A DNA stretch of 50,852 nucleotides from positions 1-50,852 of the forward strand of contig JBHLRP010000022.1 in the NCBI GenBank assembly GCA_048882485.1, given 5' to 3'. The stretch is from Candidatus Thorarchaeota archaeon. Its GTDB lineage: Archaea; Asgardarchaeota; Thorarchaeia; Thorarchaeales; Thorarchaeaceae. Under the pieces are notes generated by a model. That model saw only the letters and a list, made by a program, of their open reading frames with translations. It was not told the DNA's origin and did no database searches. The translations under genes and the position numbers were made by a program. Each line of letters opens with the position of its first letter. Positions within the stretch are counted from its first letter, which is position 1. This document shows, one piece after another, positions 15,520 through 30,433 of this stretch.

Positions 15520-15986
15520 TGCTTACAGATGAAGTACTGAAGAGGCATGCAATTTCTCCTGTGGACTTGCCCAGTGCGGCTTGGCTTGCGGGAGCTGCTG
15601 CAGGACTGGAGGTCAATAGTCATAGGAGTCCGCAGTGGTTGTGGGAGCCGTTTATTGAGGACTTGTTGGACCTATTGGTTCATCATGGCAATATTGAGCC
15701 AGCCGAACCGGGCACAAGCCCCAAGTTTGGTGATGGTGCAATAGGGTCTGCATATGATGCGTTGGGAGGGTATGTATCTATCAGTGGTGAATTCTGTCCT
15801 GAAGGTCTCTACTTCAAAGTGCCATTGAAGCGACAGGAAGCAGTGGCTAGATTGCTATCACCCAGTCATGCTTACATTTCTAGCGGTGAGATAGTGATTC
15901 CACCCCATGAGATTCCAGCGTTTCTCAGACTAGTCCCGATTCATGGTCCATTATCTGACACAATCGTTGAGGAGGCGTTGGTATGA
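15519..15986 (+). CDS. Hypothetical protein (possible degenerate LAGLIDADG-like fold)
   Basis: 155-aa ORF coupled on both sides (TAATG, ATGA); the family guess is weak. Confidence 0.7.
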   Translation: MLTDEVLKRHAISPVDLPSAAWLAGAAAGLEVNSHRSPQWLWEPFIEDLLDLLVHHGNIEPAEPGTSPKFGDGAIGSAYDALGGYVSISGEFCPEGLYFKVPLKRQEAVARLLSPSHAYISSGEIVIPPHEIPAFLRLVPIHGPLSDTIVEEALV

Positions 15987-17050
15987 CTGAGTTGGAAGGA
16001 GTGACTGGTGTTGGACCTGCTGCGGCAAAGAAGCTGAGGGAGGCATTTGTTACAACAGCTGAGTTGCTGGCAGTTCAGAATCCTGTTGAGCTGCAAAAGA
16101 AAACAAAGCTCGGGGAAGGCACTGTTGAAAAAATCATTCGAAACGCCAGAATCCTCCTGGGCATGCATGGCTTCAAGTCTGGCCTTGAGGTGGAGAAAGA
16201 GATGGAGTCCAAGTCCCGCCTCAAGACGGGCATTGAGAAAATGGACGAAGCACTCTTTGGAGGAATCGAAGTTGGCTCTATCGTTGAGTGTTATGGCCCT
16301 GCAAGAGGTGGGAAGACGCAATTTAGTGCGCATTTGGCAGTCCGTGCACAACTCCCGAGAGACCAAGGGGGCCTTGAAGGCAGAGTATTGTGGTTGGACA
16401 GCGAGTCATCATTCAAGCCCTATACTATCAGAGCCAATGCCATTCGATGGGGTCTTGATCCTGACATTACATTAGGCAATATAGGACGTGCAGAGGTCTT
16501 CCTCTCTGATCAGATTCAGGAGATATTCGAGTCCATTCCCCAACTCTGCAGCGAGCAAGACTATGTCTTGGTTGTCATTGACTCATTCACCGGGCTCTTC
16601 CGTGCGGAGTACACAGGTCTCGAATCCCTGAGAATCCGTCAGCAGGAGATGAATGCGCTTTTAAACCAAATGAGAAGGACCGCGAAGGCCACGGACGCTA
16701 TCTTTGTCTACACGAATCAAGTGATGTCTAAGATAAGCACCTACGGGGGGTATGATAATGCTCCAATAGGTGGCCATATACTCTCTCATGCTAGTGATTA
16801 CAGATTCTACACACGTAGGACAAAGGACGACAAACGAAAGCTACAACTGATAGACAATGCAGGGCTTCCTGAGTTCGATGTAGAGATGGTTGTGGGTTGG
16901 GGTGGAATGTATCCAGACTCAAAGAGCAAGAAGGAGAGCGAACCAGAGATTCTCGACTACTTTGAGAAACAGGGCGTCACTGAAGAGGAGACTGAGATTG
17001 AACTCGAGGAGGCTGAGGCGCCGCAGGCTAAGGCAGGTGAAGCTGGGTGA
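15983..17050 (+). CDS. radA: Full-length RadA/Rad51-like recombinase (divergent paralog)
   Basis: N-terminal HhH domain (GVGPAAAKKLREA), Walker A GPARGGKT, Walker B LVVIDS, FRAEY..G...RQQ, TNQV, PIGGHILSHA, acidic tail. Confidence 0.9.
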   Translation: MTELEGVTGVGPAAAKKLREAFVTTAELLAVQNPVELQKKTKLGEGTVEKIIRNARILLGMHGFKSGLEVEKEMESKSRLKTGIEKMDEALFGGIEVGSIVECYGPARGGKTQFSAHLAVRAQLPRDQGGLEGRVLWLDSESSFKPYTIRANAIRWGLDPDITLGNIGRAEVFLSDQIQEIFESIPQLCSEQDYVLVVIDSFTGLFRAEYTGLESLRIRQQEMNALLNQMRRTAKATDAIFVYTNQVMSKISTYGGYDNAPIGGHILSHASDYRFYTRRTKDDKRKLQLIDNAGLPEFDVEMVVGWGGMYPDSKSKKESEPEILDYFEKQGVTEEETEIELEEAEAPQAKAGEAG

Positions 17051-17490
17051 CCTCGGAGCGAGGAATGTTCAGAGTCTACCAGTGCCCCAGTTGCACCAAC
17101 ATAGGATACACAGCTGTCGAGAATGAGCAAGAGGAGTCAAGATGCAGCCTATGCAGGAGTCTGATTCTTCATGCACCTGGAACAATCTATGCAGTTACGA
17201 TTCAAGAAGCCCAAGCGAGTGTCCGTGAGCTTGTGATAGAATTGCGCCAGAATGCCAAACCCCGAGGGGGAGGGAGAGGCTTGGGCATTAAAAGGCGTGT
17301 CTACTATATCGTTGAAGCGCTAGTTGACCTCAACAGAGGGCGACCAGTTTCGATTGAAGATGTCATGAGAGAATGCAGCGATGCAGGCATCGATATCTCA
17401 CGTGCAATGACGTTCCTTGACTCCCTCGTTTCAGAGGGCGAGGTAATCAAGAACGGTGTGCTAGTCACCATTCCAATGGAGGCGTGGTAG
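17047..17490 (+). CDS. Zinc-ribbon plus winged-helix protein
   Basis: CPSC...CSLC at the N-terminus; C-terminal GRPVSIEDVMREC..AGI.....FLDSLVSEGEVI wHTH pattern; GTGA overlap with radA. Confidence 0.8.
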   Translation: MTSERGMFRVYQCPSCTNIGYTAVENEQEESRCSLCRSLILHAPGTIYAVTIQEAQASVRELVIELRQNAKPRGGGRGLGIKRRVYYIVEALVDLNRGRPVSIEDVMRECSDAGIDISRAMTFLDSLVSEGEVIKNGVLVTIPMEAW

Positions 17491-18117
17491 TTGACGGGTA
17501 TCGAGTCAGAGAGCAACTACGTCTGGGTTCCGCGAGCCCCACCAACTGTCGCAAATAACACAATGATCAATCTCGTGAATCTTCTCATGAGGGAAACGTC
17601 ACATCGAGTGACCGTCCTGGAGAAATGTGTAGGTCCAAATCCTGAGATCTATGTCGTCACTAGAGTCGAATGGAGAACCCCTGACCTCAGTAAACCGGTG
17701 CTGCCGCAACTTCCGAGACTGCTTTCTCTCCTTGAAACATTGAGAGGGACACAGGGAGTCCCTCATGAGATACATCTGGACAGCACTGAGGGAATTGCCG
17801 TCTATCTACCAACAGGAGTGAGAGTATCACAGTTGCCCAGCAAACCAAAGGAGGCAGTGCAATCTCTCACTGACCTAATTGAAAGCTCAGTAAGTCACAT
17901 GTACTCCACTAAGCGAGAGGTTGAAGCTTGGTTCTGGAAGATAGCTCGCCAGAAAGGGTTCAGTCCAGTGATTGTGGAGCGAATGGCAAACAAGGAAATA
18001 GGGTACAAATCGCCTTCATTGATGTGGCAGTTCCATCAGCTTCTGCGGAAGTACTTCTCTCTACGGTTCAGAATCCACACGAGTGAGTCCTGTCTACATC
18101 TGGAGGCTGATTATTGA
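17491..18117 (+). CDS. Hypothetical protein
   Basis: 208-aa ORF whose TTG abuts the previous stop, with GGAGG RBS; TTGA overlap with the next gene. Confidence 0.75.
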   Translation: MTGIESESNYVWVPRAPPTVANNTMINLVNLLMRETSHRVTVLEKCVGPNPEIYVVTRVEWRTPDLSKPVLPQLPRLLSLLETLRGTQGVPHEIHLDSTEGIAVYLPTGVRVSQLPSKPKEAVQSLTDLIESSVSHMYSTKREVEAWFWKIARQKGFSPVIVERMANKEIGYKSPSLMWQFHQLLRKYFSLRFRIHTSESCLHLEADY

Positions 18118-20069
18118 GTACTGCAGTTACTGATCCTCTCGCATGGTTTCCTTATACACCTAGACTGCATCAGGATAAGGCTGTGCGGTTTGCTGCTGAG
18201 GTCTTTTCGTCAAAGACAGTGGGATTGCTGTCTGCCGATTGCGGCGTCGGAAAAACCGTGGCTGTCCTTTCAGGATATCTTGCTGCAAGAGGTAGTGATT
18301 CGAGCTCAAGGTTGGTCGTGCTGACAAGAACTCACAGTCAGTCAAGGGTGTTCGAGATTGAACTTGACGTTCTGAGGGCAATGATGCCTGAACTTACAGC
18401 CACAACGATGGTGTCGAGGATCCATATGTGTCCAATTAGAAGCGAGATTGACTCCGACACCTCTACAGGCTTTATGCGAGCCTGTGCATCGATGATCAAG
18501 ACAGGGCAATGTACGTACTATCACAATGTCTATCGAAAGAACTCCAGCGATGGTCGAAGTGTCATCAGAGATTGGGTTCGAGAACGCGTTGAGGAATTGC
18601 TAAGCACTGGTGTTGTGACACGTGAAAGAGTGGAAGACCTCTGCAGTGCCGAAGGGGTGTGCCCATATGAAGTGATGCGCTGGTGTGCGAGACAGAGCAA
18701 GGTCATTATTGGACCATATAGCTACATGTTCAGGTCAAGGGTACGGGAGGCTCTTCTAACATCATTGGGAATCTCACTCCATGATGCTGACCTACTTGTT
18801 GATGAAGCCCACAACCTGTCAGACCATGCGCTCGACTCGGAAACAGCCAGGCTGAACGGTGAAGACCTCCGATGGCTAAGGGACCACAAATCAGAGATCG
18901 TCAAGGAAACCCGGATAAACTGGATTGGAGAGGCAGTGGACTTTCTTTACGAAACAATGATGCTCAATCTTGATGGGATGAACAGGAGATCAGAGCGTAC
19001 ACTCGCCAAGTGGGATGTGGCTCCGAGATTCATCAAAGAGTCTGATCTGCAGCTCATGCATGAAACTACTAGCCCCAGCATCGGTGATCCTGAGGTGGCT
19101 GTTTCAATGGAGACTCCCCTTGACAGGCTTGTTGAGTTCCTCTTTGTTGCCCAGCTGTCTACCAGAAGTGAAGGGTGGCATGTGACGCTTAACGTGAAAC
19201 GGTCCTGGGATGAAGCATTGACTGCCTCGAAAGCCACGCTAATGATTCGCCCACTAAACGCATCCGGTCTTACTGCACCGGTCCTCAGGGGTGCAAAATC
19301 TGCGCTGTTGATGTCCGGAACTCTGAGACCCCTAGAGCATTATGCAAGGCTATTGGGAGTTGGAGGTGCAATAACAGAGGACTTGGCAAGTCCATATCCG
19401 CGGTCGACTAGGCTAGTGCTCATTGATAGAGAGCTCACAACTAAGTACCAGGCAAGAAGTCCTGATCTCTGGCGTTCACTGGCTGATAGAATAAACACGG
19501 TACTCACAACGGTTCCCGCAAATAAGAGCGCGCTCATTGCATTTCCAAGTTACAAGATTCTTCATGAAGTCTTGAGCTACGGCATTGATTCTGGATATCG
19601 CGGAATACTCATCGAAGAGAGAGGAAACCGCATTGAGACTGTCGCAGAAGCTTTGGAAATTGGCCCTCACGCCATTTTCTGTGTCTTCGGTGGGAAATTC
19701 TCAGAAGGGGTCGATCTAGTGAAAGGCGGCTCTAGTATGATAGACTTGATTATTGGAGTCGGGATTCCCTTCTCCCCTCCTACTAGCTACCAAAGGGCAT
19801 TGCAGGAGTTCTATGATACTCGCTTTGGGGAAGGAGCTGGCTACTATTATGGAGCGTTAGTCCCATCTATTCGTCAGGTTGCCCAAGTTCTTGGTAGACT
19901 AAGGAGGTCACCTGAAGACTGGGGTGTTGTTGTTCTTTTAGACAAGCGCTTTCTCAAGCATGTCCGGGTGTTTGGTGATGATATGGTAGCTGACATCTGG
20001 CCCTTTGGTGATGTTGCTGAACTCAAGGCTGCCATTTCACAGTTCATAGCGTTAAGGGAGGGAAGCTGA
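18114..20069 (+). CDS. XPD/Rad3/DinG-family Fe-S SF2 DNA helicase
   Basis: Q motif FPYTPRLHQ, motif I ADCGVGKT, Ia TRTHSQ, four Fe-S Cys (HMCP, RAC, QCTYY, VCPYE), DEAH, MSGTL, SEGVD, QVLGRLRRS. Confidence 0.93.
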   Translation: MSTAVTDPLAWFPYTPRLHQDKAVRFAAEVFSSKTVGLLSADCGVGKTVAVLSGYLAARGSDSSSRLVVLTRTHSQSRVFEIELDVLRAMMPELTATTMVSRIHMCPIRSEIDSDTSTGFMRACASMIKTGQCTYYHNVYRKNSSDGRSVIRDWVRERVEELLSTGVVTRERVEDLCSAEGVCPYEVMRWCARQSKVIIGPYSYMFRSRVREALLTSLGISLHDADLLVDEAHNLSDHALDSETARLNGEDLRWLRDHKSEIVKETRINWIGEAVDFLYETMMLNLDGMNRRSERTLAKWDVAPRFIKESDLQLMHETTSPSIGDPEVAVSMETPLDRLVEFLFVAQLSTRSEGWHVTLNVKRSWDEALTASKATLMIRPLNASGLTAPVLRGAKSALLMSGTLRPLEHYARLLGVGGAITEDLASPYPRSTRLVLIDRELTTKYQARSPDLWRSLADRINTVLTTVPANKSALIAFPSYKILHEVLSYGIDSGYRGILIEERGNRIETVAEALEIGPHAIFCVFGGKFSEGVDLVKGGSSMIDLIIGVGIPFSPPTSYQRALQEFYDTRFGEGAGYYYGALVPSIRQVAQVLGRLRRSPEDWGVVVLLDKRFLKHVRVFGDDMVADIWPFGDVAELKAAISQFIALREGS

Positions 20070-20672
20070 ATGGCATGGTTCGAGCGATGGGAGATTAGAT
20101 GGATTGGCCTTGGCACATTGATACTTGCTGCGCTTCTGGGGCTTTGGGTGTCCTGGGGCAACATAATGGGGATTTTCCTGTCATCAATCAGCATACTATC
20201 TGCATTACTCTTGGCCCTAAGCTGGAGGAATAGCCAGCTGCCCATTATAATATGGGATGAACAGCGTGGCGTCCTTGCTATTCTATGGTCATTTACACTG
20301 GAGGTCATAGCAGGACGATTGATGACAAGCGTTCCTATTGGCATAGACCTTAGCCATTCAGCATCCAAAGTGCTTCGAGCTCTCCATGCGCGATATGATG
20401 GGAAGAAGAATGGAGAAGTTCGGTTCTTTATCTGCAGACCCACAGGCGATGGCATCACCCGTGCAGGGATGCTTGTTGCGAGAAGAGGCATTCGGTTCAT
20501 AGATGGGATAAAGAAGGCGTCTTCAATCGCAGATGAAATTGTCATTGACGCGGCAGTCCTTGAGAGTTCGATGAGAGCCGCCTATCCTCACATGCCTATT
20601 GATCTAGCAGGGTTGGATGATTTGCTGATGGTGACTTCAGGAGGTGTTGAGCCGTATGCTCAAGTCAGGTGA
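20070..20672 (+). CDS. Hypothetical membrane protein (N-terminal TM hairpin plus soluble domain)
   Basis: Two N-terminal hydrophobic helices; ATG abuts the helicase stop codon. Confidence 0.75.
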   Translation: MAWFERWEIRWIGLGTLILAALLGLWVSWGNIMGIFLSSISILSALLLALSWRNSQLPIIIWDEQRGVLAILWSFTLEVIAGRLMTSVPIGIDLSHSASKVLRALHARYDGKKNGEVRFFICRPTGDGITRAGMLVARRGIRFIDGIKKASSIADEIVIDAAVLESSMRAAYPHMPIDLAGLDDLLMVTSGGVEPYAQVR

Positions 20673-20958
20673 TAGGATAGCTATCGAGCTTCCATTTGGC
20701 GTGACACACGAAGCAGTGATGCATTCGCTTGAGATAGGCCATGGCTATAATTGGCTGGTGCTGACAAAAAGCCCGACGCTCGTTGCTCATGGATCATCAG
20801 ATCTCGGAAACATGCCAGAGATTCTTCTCGTTGGAGAGCATTTGCTCCTCGTGTCGGAATCAGACTTCGTATACGCAGAACGGTTGCAGCGTGTGCTTGA
20901 GATGCTGCGACGCCAGATAAAATCCATTTCAACAGCGGGAGGGACTTCGGTTGGGTAA
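20656..20958 (+). CDS. Small hypothetical protein
   Basis: ATG 20656 follows GGAGGTG RBS; overlaps both neighbours. Confidence 0.7.
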   Translation: MLKSGDRIAIELPFGVTHEAVMHSLEIGHGYNWLVLTKSPTLVAHGSSDLGNMPEILLVGEHLLLVSESDFVYAERLQRVLEMLRRQIKSISTAGGTSVG

Positions 20959-23308
20959 GCGTCTAATTCTCGGTACCGAGCCCGAAGTTGATCCACTAAA
21001 GGAGATCTCTCAACCCAGCATGACTGTGAGTGGTGGGATTGATCTTCAATGGGATGACCGCAGAGTGAAACCATCCCACGGTCGTGATGCAATCACGGCA
21101 ATCACCGTAGCAGTCATTCTCGCGGCACTGCCATGGAGTCTTGCTATGGTTTCCCTCGGAAGTTTCCTTGTTACGATACTAGTCCCCAAACTGAGGACCT
21201 CACAAGAGATTCGCTCCCTAGAAGAATCAGAATGGATTCGTGTTCCTGAGAGCGATACATCCTTTGCAGTGAATGAAGAACACAATGCCGTTCAGTGCAA
21301 AACGGCATCCGGCAATCGCAACGTGATAGGATTGGAGCTGCCATTGGCTGGTCCTCTATTAGTCGGAAATATGAGTGCACTCGTTAGAGCCATCGATAGC
21401 TCAAAGGGATTCTGTCTATCAGTGATAGCAAGAGCCGAAGAATCCTCCTCCATCGTGGAAGAAGAGCGTCTTTCTTCTCGATTGGATGGTTACTTGAACT
21501 ATCTATCAAGCGGTGGATTGGATGCCTATATGACCAGGCGCGGAGGCCTTTGGTCCGTCCGGGTTTCGATTATGGGGCACTCGCAGGATATCAATCAGGT
21601 TCAAAGATTCGAATCATCGATTAAGGCAGCTGTTCCGGATGGAAACTGGTCTAAAATGACGCCCAAATCTTTAGCTTCGAATATGCGGGCGATGAACATG
21701 GCGTTTCGGCTTCCATCATTCTATGCCGCCGGATCCGAACTCTCAGAGTGGTTAATACAGATTCCTAGTGAGCTTGCATCTGAGATTGGATCGAATGTTC
21801 CAGGTGAGTTCCTTGCACCCATAAAGCCCAGAGCAGGAGATTATTACATAGGCCGCGTGATAAATCCAGAAACCCTTCAGCCCGGACCTGCTGCTGGTCT
21901 ATCACACGAGGATATTCGATCCGGACTATTAGTTTGCGGAGGGACCATGGAGGAGCGAAGGCATACGATCACTCTGATTATGAGACAGCTTCTGTCACAT
22001 GGAAAGCGGGTCATTATTGTGAGTAGTGAACCTGATGCCAAGAATTTCGCATCTCTTTCTGAAGGTGCAGTATCATTTGAGCTTGGCAAGGATCTGGTAC
22101 TGAATCCTATGGACGCAGAAGGACTTCCAAGACATATCTATGTGTCCAAATTGATGACTGCTCTAGAGGTAATTGCGGGGACTGACCTTCGCGGTGCAAC
22201 TGACCTTGAACTTGCGATCAATCGTGCCATTGCATTAGGCAACACAACTGTGGCTGACGTTCAACTGACCCAGACACCAGATGTCATGGATACATATTCA
22301 GAGGCAGCAGAACAGAACGAACGAAAGCCATCTGATAGAAGTGTGTCAGGTTATGAAGCAATAAGGTCTCTACACCAAGGAACTGCGGCACGTTCCTTCT
22401 ATGGTTCTCAGACAATCGCTATGCGCGATCTGGCGCAGGCTAGCCTGGGCGTGTTGATTTTATCCCAAGGATATTTGCCAATGGAGAAATTCGCGTTCGA
22501 TCTTGTTTGCATCAAGCTCTCAGGACTCCAACAGGACCAAGATCTCGTTATCATACTCGAGAATGCAGAGAATATGAGAATTCGAAACCGGCGATATATG
22601 AAGAGGGACTCATGGAGTGAGATGATGCTTCGAGATCTGTTGCAAAGAGGTCCCACAATTGTCACGCTGGATCATCCAGTAGACATGTCCCCCGGTGCAA
22701 TTGGCAAATTGAACTCATGCATCACTCATCGACTTCGCGAGAGTCCGGATATTAAGACAGCCGTGGAATTGCTCGGCATCAGTGTCGTTTCGTCAGGCAT
22801 GCATAGTAAAGCCCGTCAATCATCCAGAGAAACATCATACCTGAGAGTAATGCCGGACGGAGTAGTCCTGTTGGTCCGAAACCAGGGCGAAACATGCATG
22901 CCTGTTGAGTTGGATGAAGCGGCCCCTCTTACTGGGCTTCACCCCGAGGAGATGGAGAGACGCATTTCTGATCTCATTCCTCAGGAGTTTCCCACTGAAG
23001 GAATGGCTTTTGGCGATTCACTGATTGATAGAGTCGCTGGAGGACAGAGAAATACAGCCATCAAGATGCTTCGACTGCTTGAGAGGTATGAACCACTGAC
23101 AGAGGAAGCAATGAGGAAATTCCTCCTTTCAGGAGATGGGAATGAGGATCCTGACATCAGTGGAGTACTTGCCAGGCTGGAGAAATCGGGCATGATACTT
23201 AGGGGTCATGAGGTCCATGGAGCGGTTTCGTATACAAACTACCGAATCACCATGAAGGGCAGCATGGCTCTTCATCAAGTTGCACAGAGGGATGAAGCAG
23301 AAAGATGA
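20951..23308 (+). CDS. Membrane-anchored HerA/VirB4/CedB-like protein with degenerate ATPase motifs and C-terminal winged helix
   Basis: N-terminal hydrophobic segment. HerA-like layout: IGRV...LSHEDIRSGLLVCGGTMEERR (Walker A position), LVLNPM, LVIILENAE (Walker B position), TLDHPVDM...LNSCITHRL...D, LRVMPDGVVLL. The C-terminus is wHTH-like (LARLEKSGMI...YRITMKG). Confidence 0.7.
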   Translation: MGKRLILGTEPEVDPLKEISQPSMTVSGGIDLQWDDRRVKPSHGRDAITAITVAVILAALPWSLAMVSLGSFLVTILVPKLRTSQEIRSLEESEWIRVPESDTSFAVNEEHNAVQCKTASGNRNVIGLELPLAGPLLVGNMSALVRAIDSSKGFCLSVIARAEESSSIVEEERLSSRLDGYLNYLSSGGLDAYMTRRGGLWSVRVSIMGHSQDINQVQRFESSIKAAVPDGNWSKMTPKSLASNMRAMNMAFRLPSFYAAGSELSEWLIQIPSELASEIGSNVPGEFLAPIKPRAGDYYIGRVINPETLQPGPAAGLSHEDIRSGLLVCGGTMEERRHTITLIMRQLLSHGKRVIIVSSEPDAKNFASLSEGAVSFELGKDLVLNPMDAEGLPRHIYVSKLMTALEVIAGTDLRGATDLELAINRAIALGNTTVADVQLTQTPDVMDTYSEAAEQNERKPSDRSVSGYEAIRSLHQGTAARSFYGSQTIAMRDLAQASLGVLILSQGYLPMEKFAFDLVCIKLSGLQQDQDLVIILENAENMRIRNRRYMKRDSWSEMMLRDLLQRGPTIVTLDHPVDMSPGAIGKLNSCITHRLRESPDIKTAVELLGISVVSSGMHSKARQSSRETSYLRVMPDGVVLLVRNQGETCMPVELDEAAPLTGLHPEEMERRISDLIPQEFPTEGMAFGDSLIDRVAGGQRNTAIKMLRLLERYEPLTEEAMRKFLLSGDGNEDPDISGVLARLEKSGMILRGHEVHGAVSYTNYRITMKGSMALHQVAQRDEAER

Positions 23309-25512
23309 CGGTTGTAGCTGATGTTCAGGAACAGGTGCATAGGCTTCTCCATCAGCTGGGTATTAAACCGAGAGGGATCCAGAAAACTTCGATTGAACGG
23401 GGCCTTCTGGATGGCGCAAGCATTTTGGTCTGCAGTCCAACTGGCTCTGGCAAGACATTGGTAGGTGAGATGGCTCTCCTTAGAGCAGCACTGACTGGAA
23501 AGAAGGGAATCTATCTAGTCCCTCTGAAGGCTCTCGCCGTGCAGGTGTCTGGAATTCTGATAGATAGGTATGAGCCTCTGGGCTTACGAATTGGTGTGAG
23601 TACAGGGGACTTTTCGAATGATGGTGAGAGTCTTTCGGACTATGATGTCATTGTGACAACATACGAGAAGGCGGATTCTTTGCTAAGACGAAAGACAGCC
23701 TGGCTCAATTCTATTGGCTCTCTAGTCATAGATGAGATTCAGACAATTTCTGATTCTGGAAGGGGTGCCCGTCTTGAATCCATTATAATCAGGTTTAAGC
23801 GAATGGTTGACGGCTTTCAGTTGATTGGGCTTTCAGCAACGGTTGGCTCACCAGATGAGCTGGCTGAGTGGCTTGGCTGTACTCTTGTTGAATCAGAAGA
23901 TCGTCCTGTGCCCTTGGTCTATCGTGTTATTCCTTCAAAACACAGGGAGCGAGTTCTTCGCCAACTGGTTATGACAACAGTGCAAGGCGATGGCCAGGCA
24001 ATTGTCTTTCATCGGACGAGACGCGAAGCTGAATCACAGGCTATACGTCTTTCAGGGGATGTTGGACGGCATTTCACTAGAATTGAAAAGGAAGATCTCG
24101 ACACAGAGCTTGAGTCAGTTGAGAATTGGAATGTCACTATACCGTCCGAACTCAGAACTCTTCTTCATGATGGCACAGCTTTTCATCATGCGGGTCTGGG
24201 AAATCGGGCTCGGCGGCTTGTTGAGGATTTATTTCTCCGGGGCAAAGTTCGAGTGATCTGCGCCACTACAACACTGGCGGCAGGGATGGACCTCCCCGCG
24301 AGGACAGTTGTTCTTACTAATGTGCGGTCTCCGGGAAATCACCGAGAAATGCTTCCTGCTAACTCCATTCATCAAATGCTAGGTCGAGCTGGTCGGCCTG
24401 GCTATGATACGACCGGGTTCGGGATTATTCTAGCTGGAAGCTCCGGAGAAGCTAAAGATGTTGAAAAGAGATACTTTCTTTCGTCATTGGATAATGAGTC
24501 GTCGACAAAAATCCTCTTTCCAAAATATGATCGTGTGATTAGCAAACTCGGCGAGTCAGCAACACTGACTGAGCAACTGCTCGTTGCACTTGATGCTTTG
24601 AATGAAGCAACCTTGGAAGACATTGCAGACGGTTTTCTGGGCGATTCCTACCTAGTGTTCACTGGAATAAGAGATACAAACTCTCCCATGCGAGTTATTC
24701 AGTTGGGTGATATAAGTGCGGAATCTGCAATCGAGAAGCATGCCTTATCAGACACTGTGCGTCCAGCTCGTCAAGGGCTCCTGGGGAGCATTAGCCTTAG
24801 GGAAACAAATGACAGTGTTATTGGTGGCATCGTAGCAGCATGGGAGGAAGGACACTATACCTGTAGGTATTCGGCCCGTCTTTCTGCTGATGGTGTTGTG
24901 GAGGGTCCGCAGTGCTCATGCTCTAGACCTATTGATAGGAATGGAGTTCTATGTTCTCACTTGGTTGCCCTGGGGCTGTATGCAGCAAGAGAGCTAGGCA
25001 GCCTTGCAGACTATGTAATTCCAGTCGCGCTGAGCGAGCTAAGTCCAAGTGAACTTCTCGTCAGGCTGGGCCTTATCGAGGGTGGAATAGAAGGAAAGAT
25101 GAAGCCTACACGATTGGGGCGGATTGTAAACCGGCTTTATCTCAGCATTCCAACAATTCGTGAGCTACTGGCAGTACTTCCAAAAATCGAGGAGAGCACA
25201 ACACTGCTATGGCTCTTGAAGCATCTGGTTTCAATCGAATCGGGGACTTCACTTGAGGATTCTTTCGAACATCTTATCGCTGCTGCAGCCACAACAGACA
25301 TTCCTCTCGAGGAGTTGGCCCGGAGTTCAGGATTTCATTTGGGTGATGCTTATGGACTACTGGAAGCCGCTCATTGGTTGCTTTACGCAATAGTTGCTGT
25401 GGCAGAGGTGGGGGGTTTGAAACAGCCAATGGCTGTTTCGCAGAGGTTGATGGAGGGACTAGAAACAAGACTTGCAGGAAGCAGGAAACAAGATTTTGGA
25501 GGCGCAAAATGA
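23305..25512 (+). CDS. Hel308/Ski2-like SF2 helicase with inserted SWIM zinc finger
   Basis: PRGIQ, SPTGSGKT, PLKALA, TYEKADS, IDEIQ, LSAT, RPVPL, FHHAGL, TTTLAAGMDLPA, QMLGRAGRPG; CSC-x10-CSH at 24913-24960. Confidence 0.92.
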   Translation: MTVVADVQEQVHRLLHQLGIKPRGIQKTSIERGLLDGASILVCSPTGSGKTLVGEMALLRAALTGKKGIYLVPLKALAVQVSGILIDRYEPLGLRIGVSTGDFSNDGESLSDYDVIVTTYEKADSLLRRKTAWLNSIGSLVIDEIQTISDSGRGARLESIIIRFKRMVDGFQLIGLSATVGSPDELAEWLGCTLVESEDRPVPLVYRVIPSKHRERVLRQLVMTTVQGDGQAIVFHRTRREAESQAIRLSGDVGRHFTRIEKEDLDTELESVENWNVTIPSELRTLLHDGTAFHHAGLGNRARRLVEDLFLRGKVRVICATTTLAAGMDLPARTVVLTNVRSPGNHREMLPANSIHQMLGRAGRPGYDTTGFGIILAGSSGEAKDVEKRYFLSSLDNESSTKILFPKYDRVISKLGESATLTEQLLVALDALNEATLEDIADGFLGDSYLVFTGIRDTNSPMRVIQLGDISAESAIEKHALSDTVRPARQGLLGSISLRETNDSVIGGIVAAWEEGHYTCRYSARLSADGVVEGPQCSCSRPIDRNGVLCSHLVALGLYAARELGSLADYVIPVALSELSPSELLVRLGLIEGGIEGKMKPTRLGRIVNRLYLSIPTIRELLAVLPKIEESTTLLWLLKHLVSIESGTSLEDSFEHLIAAAATTDIPLEELARSSGFHLGDAYGLLEAAHWLLYAIVAVAEVGGLKQPMAVSQRLMEGLETRLAGSRKQDFGGAK

Positions 25513-25513
25513 A

Positions 25514-27124
25514 ATGGCTATATCAAGTCGCGAAGGTCCACGTTCCGATGTGGGTGTTGGGGATGAAACTGAGGAGCCAAGTGGCGATCTTATTAGTGCT
25601 CTGAGAGCTTCGGGCCATTCTACTTGTGAATATCCAAACGGGCTAGTTAGTGCTGTTCGTTTGGAATCTATCCCTGGAACACGAGGTGTCCATGTGGAAG
25701 TTGTTCATGTTCTGGACTTGAGGACTGCTCGCTTCGGCAAAAGCGGGCTGGCTATGAGAGCCGCCCTCTTGGAGAGCGTCAATCGGGAGTTCGAAACTGT
25801 CTTACATGATGTTGGATTGGGAGATTATCTTGAACGAAGCGAGCTGAAGACTCCTCTTAATACTGTGTCACTACATATGCTACGAGGAAGCAAAGGCAGG
25901 AAGGCTTCATTGATTCATCCGACCAGAACAGTCTATGTTGTGACTAGGAATGTGAAGCCTACCATGGATCTGTCTTGGCTAACAGATTCAGGAAGACTGG
26001 TGACCATTGAGGAATTTGCTCTTGCGCGAAGAAGTGATGCGCGATCATTCTTGCCTGAAATCAAACATGCAGTGAGTCAGAAGAAGTGGTCTTCCTTGGA
26101 GCGTAGCATAAAGAGAGGATGGCTTGGAGTATTGGCTTTGGCTGCGTGTCTAATTGCAGTTGGTTCTACAGTCATTACCCAGCTTTCAATATCTGGCTCA
26201 ACTCTCCCATCAGTACTTACAGTGGTAGTGTCACTACTGACAGGTCTCTGGCTGCTTTCTAGTTCTACCAGCAATTTGAAGGAATTTGAGAATTCGGTAC
26301 GAGAAGAAGATGCGGTTCTCTCAACCCTTGGAGATTCGGCAAGAATTCAGCAATCCATAGAGTCCAACGAGGATAATCTTCGCCTACTAGGCGACATCAG
26401 CTTTGTTGTATCACCCCTTATGGCAAGTCTCGCAAACACCATCGAAGCTGGCTCTCTTCAAGAATCTATAGAAACCGCTTGTACAATACTGGATGAGTGT
26501 GTGCGGATGGCTCCCCTCAGGATTCAGGAAAAGAATTCCAAGGGAGCTGGAGATGAAGGTCTAGCACGATTTCTTGGCCTATTCGATGCTCTTGGAGTTC
26601 AAGTGGAAAAGGAATCACTTGCACTATCATACGTTGCGCTCACAGCTCACATCACGTCGCCTCTCAGTTTCGAGGATATGATACAGCATGTGGGTAGTCT
26701 GAGCTATGCCCTGTATAATGCTGGAGTTCTTCGACCTGACATAAAGGACATGGTTGATGACAAGGTCAACAATCGAGCAATGAAGAGGACGATTGACGCC
26801 ATTGATAAATCATTAGCTGAACCTGGCGAGCTCCATGCAGAACTACCATCAAGAACAGCAACCACCGAAAGACCAGAAGAAGACGATTCATCAAACGAGG
26901 AGGAGCTCGACCCGAATCTCCTCGATGCTATGTTGCACTCAACACTGAAAACTCAAGTTAATGAAATCCCAATAATAGCGGCTGAAGCAATAGATGAAAC
27001 CACACCAGAGGAAGAGATTCCCACTGGGGCAGATATTGTTGCTGCGAGCAATGCAGGTAAGGAGCCATCAAAGCTTGTTCAGGCTTCCCTATTCGACTTT
27101 GAGGAGGGAAGCTCTTCTGGTTAG
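25514..27124 (+). CDS. Hypothetical membrane protein (central 2-TM hairpin, acidic disordered tail, C-terminal PIP-box-like motif)
   Basis: ATG 25514 follows GGAGG; two hydrophobic helices mid-protein; ends ...VQASLFDFEEGSSSG. Confidence 0.75.
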   Translation: MAISSREGPRSDVGVGDETEEPSGDLISALRASGHSTCEYPNGLVSAVRLESIPGTRGVHVEVVHVLDLRTARFGKSGLAMRAALLESVNREFETVLHDVGLGDYLERSELKTPLNTVSLHMLRGSKGRKASLIHPTRTVYVVTRNVKPTMDLSWLTDSGRLVTIEEFALARRSDARSFLPEIKHAVSQKKWSSLERSIKRGWLGVLALAACLIAVGSTVITQLSISGSTLPSVLTVVVSLLTGLWLLSSSTSNLKEFENSVREEDAVLSTLGDSARIQQSIESNEDNLRLLGDISFVVSPLMASLANTIEAGSLQESIETACTILDECVRMAPLRIQEKNSKGAGDEGLARFLGLFDALGVQVEKESLALSYVALTAHITSPLSFEDMIQHVGSLSYALYNAGVLRPDIKDMVDDKVNNRAMKRTIDAIDKSLAEPGELHAELPSRTATTERPEEDDSSNEEELDPNLLDAMLHSTLKTQVNEIPIIAAEAIDETTPEEEIPTGADIVAASNAGKEPSKLVQASLFDFEEGSSSG

Positions 27125-27803
27125 CGAATACAGCCTTCGAACATCATTGAAGCTCGGAGGTATTATCCATTTCATAGGACCTGCAGGATCCGGCAAGACG
27201 TTGCTAGCGGCGACTATCGCGGCAGATGCATCTCGGACATCTCACGTGGAATGGATAAATGCTGACTCAAAGAAACGGTTCATACCTCATCTGAAGGCAA
27301 CAGTCAAGCATCTCAGGGGGGTGGAGAGTAACGTGTCTGTTATGATGACGAAAGGTCACAAACAGACATTGGATGCTTTGTTAAAATTGAGAACTACGAT
27401 AACACCAGACACGTCTCTAATTGTCATTGACCCTATTACAAGGGTGCTTGACATGTCAAGAAATGATCCCATCCTTTGGGGGCGATTACTAATAGAAGAG
27501 GCACTGCCCACACTAGGAGCATTATCTTGGGAAAGAGGCATAGATATCATTGTTGTAAGTGAGATGAGATTTCTTCATGAGATTGGCAATCATCCAGTGT
27601 TTTCTAATGAAATAGCAAAATGGGCAGATACTACTATCAAGGTTTGCAGGGATATTTCCAGCAAATCGTCATCTGTTTCAATTGTGGAGAATGGTGATGA
27701 TCGCAAAATCGCACAGCTCCGAGTCCTACAAAACGGAGCTTGCCATCTGTCTCTTTCACATCACCGAGGAGTGGTCACGAATTGCTTGGAAGAGGAATTC
27801 TGA
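26994..27803 (+). CDS. RadB/Rad51-paralog-like RecA-fold ATPase without N-terminal HhH domain (true start probably near 27117)
   Basis: Walker A GPAGSGKT, WINADS..F, Walker B LIVIDPIT, IIVVSEMR, KWADTTIKV; GAGGAGG at 27101 suggests a later start. Confidence 0.85.
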   Translation: MKPHQRKRFPLGQILLLRAMQVRSHQSLFRLPYSTLRREALLVSEYSLRTSLKLGGIIHFIGPAGSGKTLLAATIAADASRTSHVEWINADSKKRFIPHLKATVKHLRGVESNVSVMMTKGHKQTLDALLKLRTTITPDTSLIVIDPITRVLDMSRNDPILWGRLLIEEALPTLGALSWERGIDIIVVSEMRFLHEIGNHPVFSNEIAKWADTTIKVCRDISSKSSSVSIVENGDDRKIAQLRVLQNGACHLSLSHHRGVVTNCLEEEF

Positions 27804-28729
27804 AGATTATCGGTTTGGCGATAGCAGGAGCAATGGCTTTAGCGGGTGGTGCCCAGTTGCTCTCATCAGTGGCACTTGTGGTTATTTCCTTCAGAAGCGG
27901 GAATATCATCCCCCTGATCATTGCCATAGGCACAACAGCGGCATTGATTCATCTGAAACGACTATTTACCAAACATGCACTATCTGCAATTCTAGGGATA
28001 CTTGCTTATGCAGCCTCGGGATATCTTGCCGTGGTCGCATTCGTTGGACTGTTGCCTTATGGGATGATTTCATCCCTATTGGGTGCCGCACTAACGATTA
28101 TTGCATGTTCGGTGATGTATGACCCAAGCAACCTGAAAGAATGGATGGCAACATTGTCCCCCGACTCGTCAATATCGTGGCTGAGCAGAGACCCAGGAAC
28201 ACCTGAGTTTTCGATAGGCAAGGAAGTTTCACACCATATTGCACTACTCCCGTCTGAAAGCCGAGAGAAGGTCATCATGCTGATGAGAGACCGACCACTT
28301 CTACCAATTTCACTGACTCACTTCAATGAATGCGACGCGCTCTTCATTGACCTAAAGTCTGAGAGGATAAATTTGAACCAGATCAGAGATGCTCTCTTTA
28401 GAGCAAACGTGGCAATCAAGAATGATGCATCACCACTCTTGCGGGAGGCAATTCTCAAGGTCCCTATTATTGATGAAAAACATGGCCTTTCGATGGCAGA
28501 ATACTGTTTAGCTACTGATCAGGAAACTGTTAATCAGCTAATACGGAATCCCCCTTCACGCATGTTTGTTTTCCCTAGTAGAACCGGTCCCAGAGTCATC
28601 TATCCTGAATCGGCAGCACCAGGTCTAATATCTCAAAGAGTTCCTGAAAGCGAACTTGTCAATGCACTATTGCTTCACAGATATACCACTCTTAAGGAGG
28701 CCAATGACACCTTTGCGAATGCCACTTGA
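27782..28729 (+). CDS. Hypothetical membrane protein (about 4 N-terminal TM helices plus soluble domain)
   Basis: TTG 27782 follows GAGGAG; the first ~110 aa are hydrophobic. Confidence 0.75.
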   Translation: MLGRGILKIIGLAIAGAMALAGGAQLLSSVALVVISFRSGNIIPLIIAIGTTAALIHLKRLFTKHALSAILGILAYAASGYLAVVAFVGLLPYGMISSLLGAALTIIACSVMYDPSNLKEWMATLSPDSSISWLSRDPGTPEFSIGKEVSHHIALLPSESREKVIMLMRDRPLLPISLTHFNECDALFIDLKSERINLNQIRDALFRANVAIKNDASPLLREAILKVPIIDEKHGLSMAEYCLATDQETVNQLIRNPPSRMFVFPSRTGPRVIYPESAAPGLISQRVPESELVNALLLHRYTTLKEANDTFANAT

Positions 28730-29429
28730 TTCACTAAATGTCAATTCACGATCCGAAATCTCGCTTGCCCCGAAGCAACTTGATGACTTGCTAGGAAACA
28801 TTCTTGCACGCGAACAACTAAGCCTCTTTCATGGCCCTGAGCGATCTCCTCTTACGTCTCTCGCCCACGCCATATCAATTGCCGCAGCTGAACTAGGTGA
28901 GGGACATGCGGTCTATATTGATTCAGGGTCAAATTACAGTCCCACTTTAGCTCGAGCAATGTGCAATTCAAAGAGAAGGGTGTCAAAGATACTCAGCCGC
29001 GTTATTGTCGGGAATGTATTGAGTCTTTCAGACTTGGAGAATCTCAGTAAAAGCATTCCAAACTTGGGCCCTGTATCTATAATATTGCTCGACAGCCTGA
29101 CGGGAGTTCTGAATCTTTCTGGAGCTCCAGGAAGTGCAGGGAGGCAAAGAGAGCTCTTTCATTGTCTTGAGGTCTTGAGGGAACTAGTAAATGAGATTGG
29201 AACTCATCTTTTGATGACAGACCATTCTTCAAGAAGCTGGAATTCAGATCAATCTATACCCATTGGTGGTAATGTTCTTGCTCATGCTGTTGATTCTGTA
29301 GTGAGAGTTGATCGACTGGACGTGGGGAAGAATCTGATTCGTATATTGGTCGAGCGCAGCACACTAGGTTCTGAATCGCAAGCATTGATTCTAGTGGAAG
29401 GAAAGAAAGGTCTGCGTACCTTCAGATAG
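28704..29429 (+). CDS. RecA/Rad51-paralog-like protein with degenerate Walker A
   Basis: ATG 28704 follows GGAGG. QLDDLLG, GPERSPLT in place of GxxxxGKT, VYIDSG, ILLDSLT, RQREL, PIGGNVLAHAVD. Confidence 0.85.
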   Translation: MTPLRMPLDSLNVNSRSEISLAPKQLDDLLGNILAREQLSLFHGPERSPLTSLAHAISIAAAELGEGHAVYIDSGSNYSPTLARAMCNSKRRVSKILSRVIVGNVLSLSDLENLSKSIPNLGPVSIILLDSLTGVLNLSGAPGSAGRQRELFHCLEVLRELVNEIGTHLLMTDHSSRSWNSDQSIPIGGNVLAHAVDSVVRVDRLDVGKNLIRILVERSTLGSESQALILVEGKKGLRTFR

Positions 29430-29440
29430 CGGTGATTCCT

Positions 29441-30433
29441 ATGGGTGTGACTGGTTGGAGCAATCTGGTCCCTTGGGCATGGGCCGATGTGAATGAGGTT
29501 ACACCAGGCAATATCGCAATAGACATGCCCAATTATTTGACGCGTCGTGTGAGTGTCATTCCTTCATCAAAACGAGATAGCGGCAGAATTCCCCTTCATC
29601 ACGCTGGAATGACTCTAAGCTTGATAAGAATGTGTCTGAAGAACGCATTACTGCCAGTCCTCATTTTTGATGGTCCACCAGAGCGTATGAAGAGGTCTCC
29701 AAATCCTGAACTCATTCTCACTGCTCAATCCTTCTACAGGCAATTCAAAGAGACTCGGGATCCGTACGATGAGGAGATAGCCAGTCCATTGCGGAAGAGT
29801 CCGTCTCTCAGAATGTACTTCGCTATCGAGCACACACGCGAACTCGCACGCGTTCTAGGTGTGCCTGCAATCTCAGCGCCATCGGAAGCTGAGATGTTTT
29901 CTGCTGTGCTATGCAGAGACAGGCTAGTTAATACAGTCGTTTCAAATGACTCAGATGCGCTTCTATTTGGGAGTCCACATGTAACGAAGCAATTGCAGCT
30001 GTCAAAAAGGCTGATACACAGAGCCACGCTTGCTGATTTGGAAAGCACGACTGGACTTGATCTTGAACAACTAAGAGACCTCGCTGTAGTATGTGGATGC
30101 GATTTTCACAGGCAAGGAGTGAAAGGTATCGGTCCAAGAAAGGGGATGATTCTCCTTCAGCGACATGGAGGGTTGGAAGCATTACTCAAGGCACGAGGGT
30201 ATGGTCCAATTGAACGTAGGGAATTTATGGATGGCAGACAGGCATTCGATGAGGCTAGCTACATTTCTACAAATGGGCTTTTCTTCGATCTAAATCCGCC
30301 ACTAGTCTCGAAGCTTACGGGGATGCTGACTATGTTCATGACGGAGAACCGTGCAGAAGAGATTACGCGTCAGTTTGTTGGATTATGGAGGAAATTTGGC
30401 ACACATCAAGAAACTCTAGAGCAATGGCTCTGA
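29441..30433 (+). CDS. FEN1/XPG-family structure-specific 5' nuclease (divergent) with C-terminal PIP box
   Basis: MGV N-terminus, IAID, IFDG, APSEAE, SNDSDALLFG, GCDF, GVKGIGPRKG (H2TH), terminal QETLEQWL. Confidence 0.9.
   Translation: MGVTGWSNLVPWAWADVNEVTPGNIAIDMPNYLTRRVSVIPSSKRDSGRIPLHHAGMTLSLIRMCLKNALLPVLIFDGPPERMKRSPNPELILTAQSFYRQFKETRDPYDEEIASPLRKSPSLRMYFAIEHTRELARVLGVPAISAPSEAEMFSAVLCRDRLVNTVVSNDSDALLFGSPHVTKQLQLSKRLIHRATLADLESTTGLDLEQLRDLAVVCGCDFHRQGVKGIGPRKGMILLQRHGGLEALLKARGYGPIERREFMDGRQAFDEASYISTNGLFFDLNPPLVSKLTGMLTMFMTENRAEEITRQFVGLWRKFGTHQETLEQWL

Follow-up and report, generated by a model that had tools for sequence, protein, structure and literature searches.

A degenerate PIP-like motif in the disordered tail of a Thorarchaeota membrane-hairpin protein as a candidate tether for PCNA

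The window (the whole stretch of DNA analysed here, 50,852 nucleotides of a Candidatus Thorarchaeota genome) carries an operon encoding a RadA paralog, an XPD-like helicase, a Hel308-like helicase and two core-only RecA folds, with three RecA-family proteins in all, and further encoding membrane proteins and a FEN1-like nuclease. Translation of positions 25514-27124 on the forward strand yields a protein of 536 amino acids (here denoted P0001), the C-terminus of which reads GKEPSKLVQASLFDFEEGSSSG before the stop codon. Other proteins of the operon are the RadA paralog at 15983-17050, a VirB4-like protein at 20951-23308 and a RecA-like protein at 28656-29429. The features of the locus are as follows, with the basis of each assignment in brackets.

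25514..27124, + strand: P0001 gene, encoding a two-TM protein of 536 aa (translation of the window)
25577..26083, + strand: N-terminal alpha/beta domain of P0001, residues 22-190, predicted cytoplasmic (AF2)
26120..26263, + strand: predicted transmembrane helical hairpin, residues 203-250 (hydrophobicity, positive-inside counts over 104 relatives, AF2)
26336..26815, + strand: C-terminal helical bundle, residues 275-434, predicted cytoplasmic (AF2, pLDDT mostly >88)
26822..27121, + strand: acidic tail, residues 437-536, predicted disordered, with conserved islands (pLDDT <50)
27023..27046, + strand: island T-G-A-D-I-V-A-A, residues 504-511 (alignment of relatives)
27080..27103, + strand: PIP-like motif Q523-A-S-L-F-D-F-E530 (translation, conservation, docking model)
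27099..27124, + strand: overlap of the last 8-9 P0001 codons with the downstream gene's start region and its RBS (GAGGAGG)
27099..27803, + strand: core-only RecA-fold ATPase with Walker A GPAGSGKT
29432..30433, + strand: FEN1-like paralog nuclease of the operon, C-terminal QETLEQWL at 30407-30430 followed by the stop codon (TIGR03674, XPG_I)
16922..16963, + strand: possible PIP-like motif, basic-flanked and lacking the Gln (pattern likeness to P. furiosus Mre11, KKKRGTLDSWLGG)

The P0001 family is restricted to Thorarchaeota. A profile of the N-terminal domain recovered 51 representatives among 1.84 billion proteins and no others, and the architecture is identical in all of them. P0001 has no match in Pfam, NCBIfam or PADLOC, and we rejected it as a known defence family on the lack of a PADLOC or Pfam match; a search of PDB sequences with the family profile returned nothing, and the ESM Atlas gave no usable match. 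At the level of structure, the whole protein had no Foldseek match in the PDB at E <= 0.001, CD-NTase and poly(A) polymerase heading the list with E about 0.1, and a wide VIA-align search returned generic helical hairpins only, with Z about 10, under the helical noise line. The C-terminal helical bundle likewise has generic helical structural matches alone. The N-terminal domain modelled by itself (AF2 pLDDT 84.8) has no significant Foldseek match, and its best VIA-align scores, Z 6.8-5 with many PD-(D/E)xK nucleases, all lie under the noise line of 8; these include Hjc 1hh1 (Z 6.4, rmsd 3.7, 93 residues aligned) and Can2, FokI, Bax1 and VRR_NUC (Z 5-6.2). Comparison of the N-domain profile with an Hjc alignment by hhalign gave a probability of 0.13%. 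The carrier of the PIP-like motif is a membrane-embedded protein with no recognised catalytic domain.

The two transmembrane segments proposed in the first-pass annotation were recovered as TM1, residues 203-223, and TM2, residues 232-250, with 19-mer Kyte-Doolittle means that reach 2.3 and long AF2 helices at 190-224 and 231-271. Over the 104 relatives the loop between them, of ~9 residues, is uncharged and essentially lacks Lys and Arg, whereas the N-flank of the hairpin has a mean of 3.0 K+R, and because of this difference the protein is predicted to form an N-in/C-in hairpin with its tail in the cytoplasm, as a tether for the sliding clamp would require. The tail of ~100 residues is predicted to be disordered, since AF2 pLDDT is below 50 at residues 439-466, 476-505 and 512-536, which bears out the long acidic, disordered linker described earlier; residues 512-536 show no confident intramolecular docking in the full-length model, and the linker columns have a conservation of 20-30 in an indel-rich alignment. 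Within the tail the T-G-A-D-I-V-A-A island is the oldest and most widespread motif of the family, followed by a Lys/Arg-rich patch in most relatives. A search of the tail profile against the PDB returned only three chains, all of Mediator MED22 (E 0.036), a match that we judged to be chance.

QASLFDF is encoded at 27080-27100, exactly where the first-pass annotation had placed it; it is not the extreme end of the protein, and seven residues follow it before the stop codon. The pattern Q.[ST]L[FLI][DE] within the last 30 residues occurs in one of the 5110 ORFs of the genome, namely P0001, and conservation of the motif columns among the 104 relatives is 82 for Q, 69 for S, 77 for L and 71 for D, compared with 20-30 for the linker, indicating that the occurrence is beyond chance. 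The core Q-x-S-L-hydrophobic-D/E is kept in about 85 of the 104 relatives, which form a crown clade in which the linker cannot be aligned. The Q, S and L codons vary synonymously among relatives, showing that selection acts on the residues and not on the DNA. The element is a real short linear motif, though not a canonical PIP box.

The first-pass annotation had quoted the archaeal consensus as the 8-mer QxxLxx(F/W)(F/L), and to this the motif does not conform, position 8 being Glu (E530); the canonical 8-mer Q-x-x-[LIM]-x-x-[FWY]-[FWYL] is found in none of the 104 family tails. Q523 at position 1 and the aliphatic L526 at position 4 agree with a canonical PIP box, and the motif lies at a site predicted to be exposed and disordered in the compartment of PCNA (pLDDT <50 at 512-536; N-in/C-in). 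QASLFDFE fits the relaxed archaeal pattern QxxLxxFx, which is given, with degenerate PIP boxes noted, in a review of H. volcanii (PMC7776575).

Archaeal clients with a C-terminal PIP box of this consensus are FEN1, the RFC large subunit, PolD DP2, NreA and PolY. P0001 shares with them Gln at position 1, Ser/Thr at position 3, Leu at position 4 and, in the window's copy, an aromatic at position 7, as well as a disordered terminal cytoplasmic tail and, in the model described below, the same PCNA groove. It differs from them in the Glu at position 8, where they have an aromatic or hydrophobic residue, in the seven residues after the motif, in an aromatic whose place varies among relatives (position 7, position 8 or missing) and in being an integral membrane protein, whereas the known clients are soluble DNA enzymes. 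The RFC large subunit of P. furiosus carries the peptide QATLFDF, which QASLFDF matches at six of seven residues; the literature searched here had no match to QATLFDF.

A second comparison is with P. furiosus Mre11 (KKKRGTLDSWLGG) and Hel308/Hjm, whose C-termini carry the non-canonical PIP-like peptides, basic on the N-terminal side, by which they bind PCNA (PMC6009593) and which, like P0001, have a degenerate motif in a recombination-associated tail; unlike P0001, both act on DNA themselves. A basic upstream flank of this type is present in most crown-clade relatives of P0001, for example RMKKRKGKSKEST-QLSLIDEFEY, and is lost in the window's copy, having shrunk in the window's clade to K516 and K520; the crown-clade consensus reads QLSLIDDFEY behind the basic patch. 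Client tails within the same genome include a relaxed form, Q-x-x-[LI]-x-[DE]-F, in which position 8 is either missing or an acidic residue. The canonical Hel308 ends in QTLIEDFEIEND with the motif QTLIEDFE, two DUF72 proteins end in QTSLEDF and QTTLDEF, and the NreA tail is QTLITDFVE; FEN1 (QSSLTDFF) and PolY (QSILSEFF) have canonical tails. The Hel308 family tail Q-T-L-L-E-D-F is conserved, and its form in this lineage, QTL[LI]EDFE, with the variants QLSLEDFL and QMSLDDFDS, is near-identical to the P0001-family pattern.

The family form Q-L-S-L-[LFI] is also identical to the bacterial beta-clamp motif QL[SD]LF, to which the window's QASLF conforms at four of five positions. The beta clamp was rejected as a partner, as DnaN (PF02768) was not found in the 90.5% complete assembly, whereas control genomes were positive. 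The genome encodes a single PCNA, the sole clamp found.

With alignments built in-house, low confidence in the partner fold and the window's motif variant as the only one covered, docking of P0001 with PCNA gave an ipSAE of 0.64 (runs 0.62, 0.64 and 0.66) against 0.00 for the best control; 58 of 80 solved complexes attain that mark, as do 2 of 110 mismatched pairs. The runs share at least 60% of their contacts, with a partner pLDDT of at least 42. In the model, residues 519-530 of P0001 contact PCNA residues 40, 43-47, 124, 126-128, 226-227, 243 and 245-250, a predicted interface that corresponds to the classical PIP groove. The docking check suggested with the original proposal thus gave a positive answer at the level of a model, a pass that may reflect likeness to ('memory' of) solved PIP-PCNA complexes. 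Gln523 would most likely enter the Q pocket of PCNA, and Leu526 together with Phe527/Phe529 the hydrophobic pocket that lies beneath the homotrimer's interdomain connector loop.

The acidic setting of the motif (S-L-F-D-F-E-E in the window, L-L-D-D-F-E-L in the consensus) would also suit an acidic-hydrophobic peptide that binds another hub of DNA metabolism, such as the OB-fold protein RPA, with the similar Hel308 tail sharing that partner. Acidic amphipathic helices and SSB-type acidic tips bind such hubs in other systems, the canonical Hel308 of this lineage ends in the same type of motif, and Hel308 reportedly interacts with RPA in a methanogen. We consider this reading very unlikely, as the hallmarks of a PIP box include Gln at position 1 and Ser/Thr at position 3, PCNA docking passes against its controls, and in P. 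furiosus Hjm it is reportedly the last 20 residues that serve for PCNA (PMC6009593).

Conservation of the motif against the variable linker, which the first-pass annotation had named as a check, held for the core and failed in three places: the Phe at position 7 is lost in the closest sister group, one copy is degenerate, and the motif is absent from basal clades. F529 at position 7 is found in the window and four close relatives. The nearest sister group (about 66-72% identity) is of the QASLFDSEEG type, QxSL[FL][DE][SQ]EEG, with Ser or Gln at position 7 and no hydrophobic residue at positions 7 and 8, and one 78%-identical copy has degenerated to QSSQGDF. Constraint may therefore be relaxed in the subclade to which the window belongs. 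Members of the majority clade have the form Q-L-S-L-hydrophobic-D-D-hydrophobic behind a Lys/Arg patch, with a single aromatic at position 8 and not 7, a register shift of one residue. Basal clades and most divergent representatives lack the Q motif and retain the operon, indicating that the motif is dispensable for core function; the T-G-A-D-I-V-A-A island is retained even by divergent representatives without the Q motif.

The downstream gene has a candidate TTG start at 27099, in the +1 frame relative to P0001, and the RecA-fold ATPase that it encodes is probably translationally coupled to P0001. The conserved tip E-E-x-G-S-A-G-V corresponds to R-R-S-V-x-L-x-V-S-K in the ATPase frame, and the gene overlap accounts for conservation of this extreme tip. 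As a cause of the family-wide conservation of the motif the overlapping frame was rejected, because most orthologs have stop codons in the +1 frame across the motif. The Phe529 codon TTT and the next G form the candidate TTG, which could favour Phe529 for a reason that is not the protein's; one ortholog, however, retains the Phe as TTC and forms no TTG.

These features of the DNA bear on the view that the motif in the window's genome is a decaying or constrained remnant with no binding role. On this view the ancestral motif would have lost its D-hydrophobic-E-hydrophobic half to a deletion in the window's clade, and what is left would be shaped partly by the GAGGAGG RBS, the TTG start and the open +1 frame. 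The sister-group and QSSQGDF forms are consistent with such decay, as are the lost Lys/Arg patch, the abutment of the motif on the E-E-G tip, which is encoded by the Shine-Dalgarno-like GAGGAGG, and the Phe529 codon within the TTG; this clade also has a +1 frame that, from an ATG 71 nt ahead of the stop, runs open across the motif. Yet positions 1, 3, 4 and 5 (Q, S, L, F/L) are kept in 15 of the 16 members of the clade despite an overall divergence of 10-34%, the TTC ortholog keeps its Phe with no TTG, the window's variant is the one that passes docking into the PIP groove, and it fits the relaxed PIP pattern of the genome's own Hel308 and DUF72 tails. We therefore hold the remnant view to be improbable.

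The overlapping gene is also a candidate source of a rival docking partner. The motif might dock another protein of the machine, chiefly the RecA-fold ATPase, with the tail holding a Rad51-family subunit at the membrane in the manner of a BRC repeat. In BRC4 of BRCA2, FxxA and LFDE elements stand about 21 residues apart, and the P0001 tail resembles such a repeat: I508-V-A-A511 would be the hydrophobic-x-x-Ala/Gly element and L526-F-D-F the LFDE-like element, the two islands standing 18 residues from each other, and in most relatives the spacer is rich in Lys/Arg. A start of the ATPase gene within the last 8-9 codons of P0001 fits translational coupling and likely equal stoichiometry, the operon holds three RecA-family proteins, and the GADIV island, family-wide, lies outside the modelled PCNA interface. 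The first element, however, has Ile/Val in place of Phe, and Gln, which is a PIP-box hallmark and shows the highest conservation in the motif, has no role in an LFDE module. Basal clades, moreover, retain the ATPase without the Q motif. Among the families reported for 18 tail sequences searched against Pfam at E up to 10 there was no BRCA2 repeat, and the search of the tail profile against the PDB gave no support for a BRC repeat, motifs this short being at the limit of both searches. We regard docking of this kind as rather unlikely.

We return to PCNA with the nuclease of the operon. It matches XPG_I and scores 117.8 bits against TIGR03674 (cut-off 352), and the true FEN1 of the genome is encoded elsewhere. 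Its C-terminus QETLEQWL lies at 30407-30430, as the first-pass annotation had reported, and the PIP box Q-[EST]-T-L-E-Q-W-[LIV] is canonical in 30 of 30 orthologs (46-100% identity), so that PCNA very probably takes part in the chemistry of the operon. The nuclease gene lies about 2.3 kb from the P0001 gene on the same contigs, and genomes without the one are without the other.

Our best reading of P0001 is that of a lineage-specific membrane-hairpin subunit of an accessory Thorarchaeota operon for DNA recombination or processing. For its motif, the best reading is a degenerate PIP-like membrane tether for PCNA, a proposal that rests in part on a docking model and that we judge to have about an even chance of being correct. 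The tether proposed in the first-pass annotation is plausible because the motif is conserved, the tail is predicted to be cytoplasmic, the docking passes and the nuclease has a PIP box; a share of the probability stays with a different docking partner. The tail would act as a flexible leash bearing short docking peptides, Q523-E530 the last of them, and would hold a clamp at the membrane complex, where the clamp would present the nuclease to DNA. Since the nuclease has a canonical PIP box of its own and three sites are available on each PCNA trimer, one clamp could bridge tail and nuclease; both this bridging role and the binding of the tail to PCNA are inferred.

PCNA is known as the soluble toolbelt of enzymes in replication and repair. 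A bolder extension would make the homotrimer a three-way adaptor of a membrane-bound Asgard machine for recombination or import, with the P0001 leash and the nuclease at two sites and the RadA paralog at another through its conserved peptide KKE-x-EP-x-[IV]-L-[DE]-Y-F; the substrate for flap processing and strand exchange would then be DNA held at the membrane beside a VirB4-like hub. We think this extension improbable.

The operon looks like a membrane-associated machine for recombination or DNA uptake, and our literature search found nothing on it or on membrane PIP proteins in archaea. If correct, the tether would give concrete experimental access to this uncharacterised, lineage-specific operon, since the peptide, the clamp and the nuclease all lend themselves to recombinant production. 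The case shows that selection can retain a PIP motif that has degenerated to a single aromatic and a shifted register, which matters when clamp clients are predicted in Asgard genomes. One further candidate lies in the window at 16922..16963 on the forward strand, a possible PIP-like motif that lacks the Gln and has a basic flank, for which P. furiosus Mre11 (PMC6009593) served as the comparison pattern.

The reading frame at 25514-27124 (+) is free of stops and encodes a 536-residue protein ending in TGADIVAASNAGKEPSKLVQASLFDFEEGSSSG. Its homologs are annotated solely as hypothetical proteins in Thorarchaeota/Promethearchaeota MAGs, and no Pfam, NCBIfam or PADLOC model matched it. An HMM of the N-terminal domain retrieved only 51 matches from 1.84 billion representative proteins; except for shorter, apparently fragmentary ones these are 464-591 aa long with the domain at a constant position, and none is a fusion. 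The gene is present in 55 of the 87 genomes of the class (21 of 24 high-quality ones), all from one family, and within the window's own genus only 6 of 16 genomes carry it; thus the gene is accessory and lineage-restricted. AlphaFold2, using an alignment of 104 relatives (mean pLDDT 77.5), predicted the following parts:

residues 24-164, alpha/beta domain
residues 190-224 and 231-271, two long antiparallel helices
residues 275-434, helical bundle
residue 439 onward, tail (pLDDT <50)

The N-terminal domain shows a weak likeness to PD-(D/E)xK nucleases, Hjc included (Z 6.4), and its profile comparison with Hjc was negative. The Hjc Holliday-junction resolvase (PF01870) was not found in G000, the window's own assembly (90.5% complete); among 5 further family members only 2 genomes have it, and across the phylum 17 of 51 do.

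The first-pass annotation proposed that the tail is a PIP-like membrane tether for the PCNA sliding clamp. Charged residues are absent from 203-223 and 232-250, both of which are strongly hydrophobic (19-mer Kyte-Doolittle values reach 2.3). Family-wide, the TM1-TM2 loop averages 9 residues and 0.02 Lys/Arg, versus 3.0 Lys/Arg in the segment N-terminal to TM1, so the positive-inside rule predicts an N-in/C-in hairpin. This bears out a tail on the cytoplasmic side, where the folded domains would also lie, in the compartment of PCNA.

QASLFDF is encoded at exactly 27080-27100, as annotated; it lies close to the C-terminus of the membrane protein but does not end it, as seven residues come after. 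The tail carries four conserved islands with indel-rich sequence between them:

residues ~466-478, E-L-x-D-x-I helix
residues 504-509, window 27023-27046 (+), T-G-A-D-I-V, usually followed by a Lys/Arg patch
residues 523-530, Q motif (Q-A-S-L-F-D-F-E)
tip, E-E-x-G-S-A-G-V

No element of the tail is conserved more widely than the second island, [TS]-[GA]-[AS]-[DE]-[IV]-V with Lys/Arg after it. Across the 104 relatives, linker columns (residues 437-500) have conservation of ~20-30, versus 82 for Q523, 69 for S525, 77 for L526 and 71 for D528. Synonymous codons are used for the conserved residues (Q, CAG/CAA; S, TCT/TCA/TCC; L, CTG/CTT/CTA/TTA), indicating that the peptide is what selection acts on. 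In a tree of the folded part, the Q motif occupies one large crown clade (~85 of 104 sequences); basal clades are without it, and more divergent representatives mostly retain the GADIV-plus-basic island without the Q motif, which marks the latter as a crown-clade innovation. The motif varies as follows:

Q-L-S-L-[LFIY]-[DE]-[DE]-[FYLI]-E-[LHY], 52 sequences, and 8 more with Glu or Lys replacing Gln
Q-L-A-L-D-D-F-E, one subclade, in which one residue is deleted
Q-x-S-L-F-D-F-E, the window's own form, shared with four close relatives
Q-x-S-L-[FL]-[DE]-[SQ]-E-E-G, the sister group of the window, where positions 7 and 8 both lack a hydrophobic residue

One close copy is degenerate (QSSQGDF), and the canonical PIP 8-mer, Q-x-x-[LIM]-x-x-[FWY]-[FWYL], occurs in 0 of the 104 relatives. 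In the crown clade the core of the motif is conserved above the linker; the position-7 Phe is lost in the sister group, one close copy is degenerate and the basal clades have no motif. The strongest point for a PIP over its rivals is that the PIP hallmarks Gln1, Ser3 and Leu4 are the best conserved positions; they would also weigh against another hub such as RPA as the partner, which we hold to be very improbable. The strongest point against a PIP is that the nearest sister group has lost any hydrophobic residue at positions 7/8.

We scanned all ORF C-termini of G000, which has one PCNA gene and in which no beta clamp was found, for PCNA clients and named the matches by Pfam. The following proteins end in PIP-type peptides:

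FEN1, QSSLTDFF
PolY, QSILSEFF
1183-aa protein, QTDLTDFFE
NreA, QTLITDFVE
canonical Hel308 (G000:C21:1313-3565), QTLIEDFEIEND
DUF2797 protein (C3:127962-128906), QTGLLDFL
two DUF72 proteins (G000:C6:75595-76416 and C48:11641-12480), QTSLEDF and QTTLDEF

DUF72 and DUF2797 are uncharacterised families, here candidate PCNA clients. Since the genome's own client C-termini show it, Q-x-x-[LI]-x-[DE]-F with an acidic or absent position 8 is a normal form in this organism. In nearly all of 30 Thorarchaeaceae genomes the canonical Hel308 ends in the single-aromatic, PIP-like Q-T-L-[LI]-E-D-F followed by 0-6 acidic residues, and the Hel308 variants QLSLEDFL and QMSLDDFDS match Q motifs of the membrane protein family. 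Published work likewise describes relaxed archaeal PIPs: the consensus is QxxLxxFx, with degenerate motifs in PolY and NreB (PMC7776575), and recombination proteins have non-canonical, basic-flanked PIP-like tails, such as PfuMre11 KKKRGTLDSWLGG and the last 20 residues of Hjm (PMC6009593).

The docking check on the tether proposal was passed by the modelled tail. PCNA (alignment of 30 Asgard sequences) and residues 476-536 of the window's variant (103-row alignment) gave ipSAE of 0.62, 0.64 and 0.66 versus 0.00 in all three controls. Of 80 solved complexes 58 attained that mark, as did 2 of 110 mismatched pairs. Such a pass may stem from the model's memory of solved PIP complexes, and it speaks for likeness, not binding. 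The runs share at least 60% of contacts, with a partner pLDDT of 42-45. The confident interface joins residues 519-530 to PCNA 40, 43-47, 124, 126-128, 226-227, 243 and 245-250, with Gln523 contacting PCNA 245 and 247, and Leu526 contacting 40, 44-47, 227 and 243. The modelled site comprises the Q pocket, hydrophobic pocket, interdomain connector loop and C-terminal tail, the classical PIP mode. The GADIV island lies outside this interface.

The membrane protein gene overlaps that of a RecA-fold ATPase in the +1 frame:

27099-27124 (+), last 8-9 codons of the membrane protein, GAGGAGG, and ATPase start region

GAGGAG, the two Glu codons of the tip, gives a Shine-Dalgarno-like site (GAGGAGG). 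The conserved tip is dual-coding, reading R-R-S-V-x-L-x-V-S-K in the ATPase frame; in the window E-E-R-G-S-A-S-V, then stop, reads (R)-R-S-V-V-L-Q-V-S-K. Start candidates 23-26 nt ahead of the membrane protein's stop are ATG (two orthologs) and TTG (window, 27099); the full set of candidate ATPase starts is TTG at -23 or CTG at -5 in the window, and GTG at -17 or -5 or ATG at -26 in orthologs. This arrangement bears on two rivals. The peptide might dock in a BRC-like manner on another operon protein, for which the translationally coupled ATPase is the most plausible candidate; we regard this as unlikely, though the foremost of the alternatives. Less probable still, the window's own copy would be a decaying remnant shaped by the overlap. 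In the window's clade the Q motif lies directly beside the overlap, and TTT, the codon of Phe529, makes TTG together with the next G, a caveat on the position-7 Phe in this genome; one ortholog codes Phe with TTC and makes no TTG. The overlap explains conservation of the extreme tip and not of the Q motif, since the +1 frame has stops across the motif in most orthologs.

Pfam and NCBIfam identified the following operon products, with several unassigned proteins, membrane proteins among them, in between:

15983-17050, full-length RadA paralog
18114-20069, XPD-like helicase
23305-25512, Hel308-like helicase, far under the equivalog cut-off
27099-27803, core-only RecA-fold ATPase
28656-29429, RadB-like protein
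29432-30433 (+), FEN1-like paralog (118 bits vs cut-off 352)

The FEN1-like nuclease ends in THQETLEQWL, the last eight residues as first annotated. In many genomes it lies ~2.3 kb downstream of the membrane protein gene, and the two are jointly present or jointly absent. All 30 of the 30 orthologs, which reach down to 46% identity, retain its canonical C-terminal PIP box, even where the genome's membrane protein is without the Q motif; the operon therefore very likely works with PCNA, whatever the status of the Q motif.

With the docking model, the core conservation and this PIP box, a membrane tether for the clamp is the best-supported explanation, to which we give an even chance; its motif is noncanonical. 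The tail would serve as a long, flexible leash, with a degenerate PIP-like motif as its last free peptide; by docking on PCNA it would keep the clamp at the membrane complex, and the other two sites of PCNA would keep the PIP-bearing nuclease there too. PIP-like motifs as such are well known; the papers searched did not describe a leash of this kind on a polytopic membrane protein within a recombination operon. Peptides and recombinant PCNA would allow a direct test of the reading.

The operon (14767-30433) behaves as an accessory unit, and no integrase or other mobile-element genes were seen in the flanks examined. About 3 kb upstream, on the opposite strand, 9386-11751 (-) encodes a pair in which a short SbcC/Rad50-like ATPase of 429 aa stands beside an SbcD/Mre11-like protein, a calcineurin-like phosphoesterase of 359 aa. 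The RadA paralog has an acidic C-terminal extension that starts with a conserved K-S-K-K-E-S-E-P-E-I-L-D-Y-F (16922-16963, +), and KKE-x-EP-x-[IV]-L-[DE]-Y-F-E-K is found in most of 29 orthologs (55-100% identity). This peptide fits a Gln-less, basic-flanked PIP-like motif, as in P. furiosus Mre11, and may be a third clamp-docking peptide of the operon or a mere structural helix.
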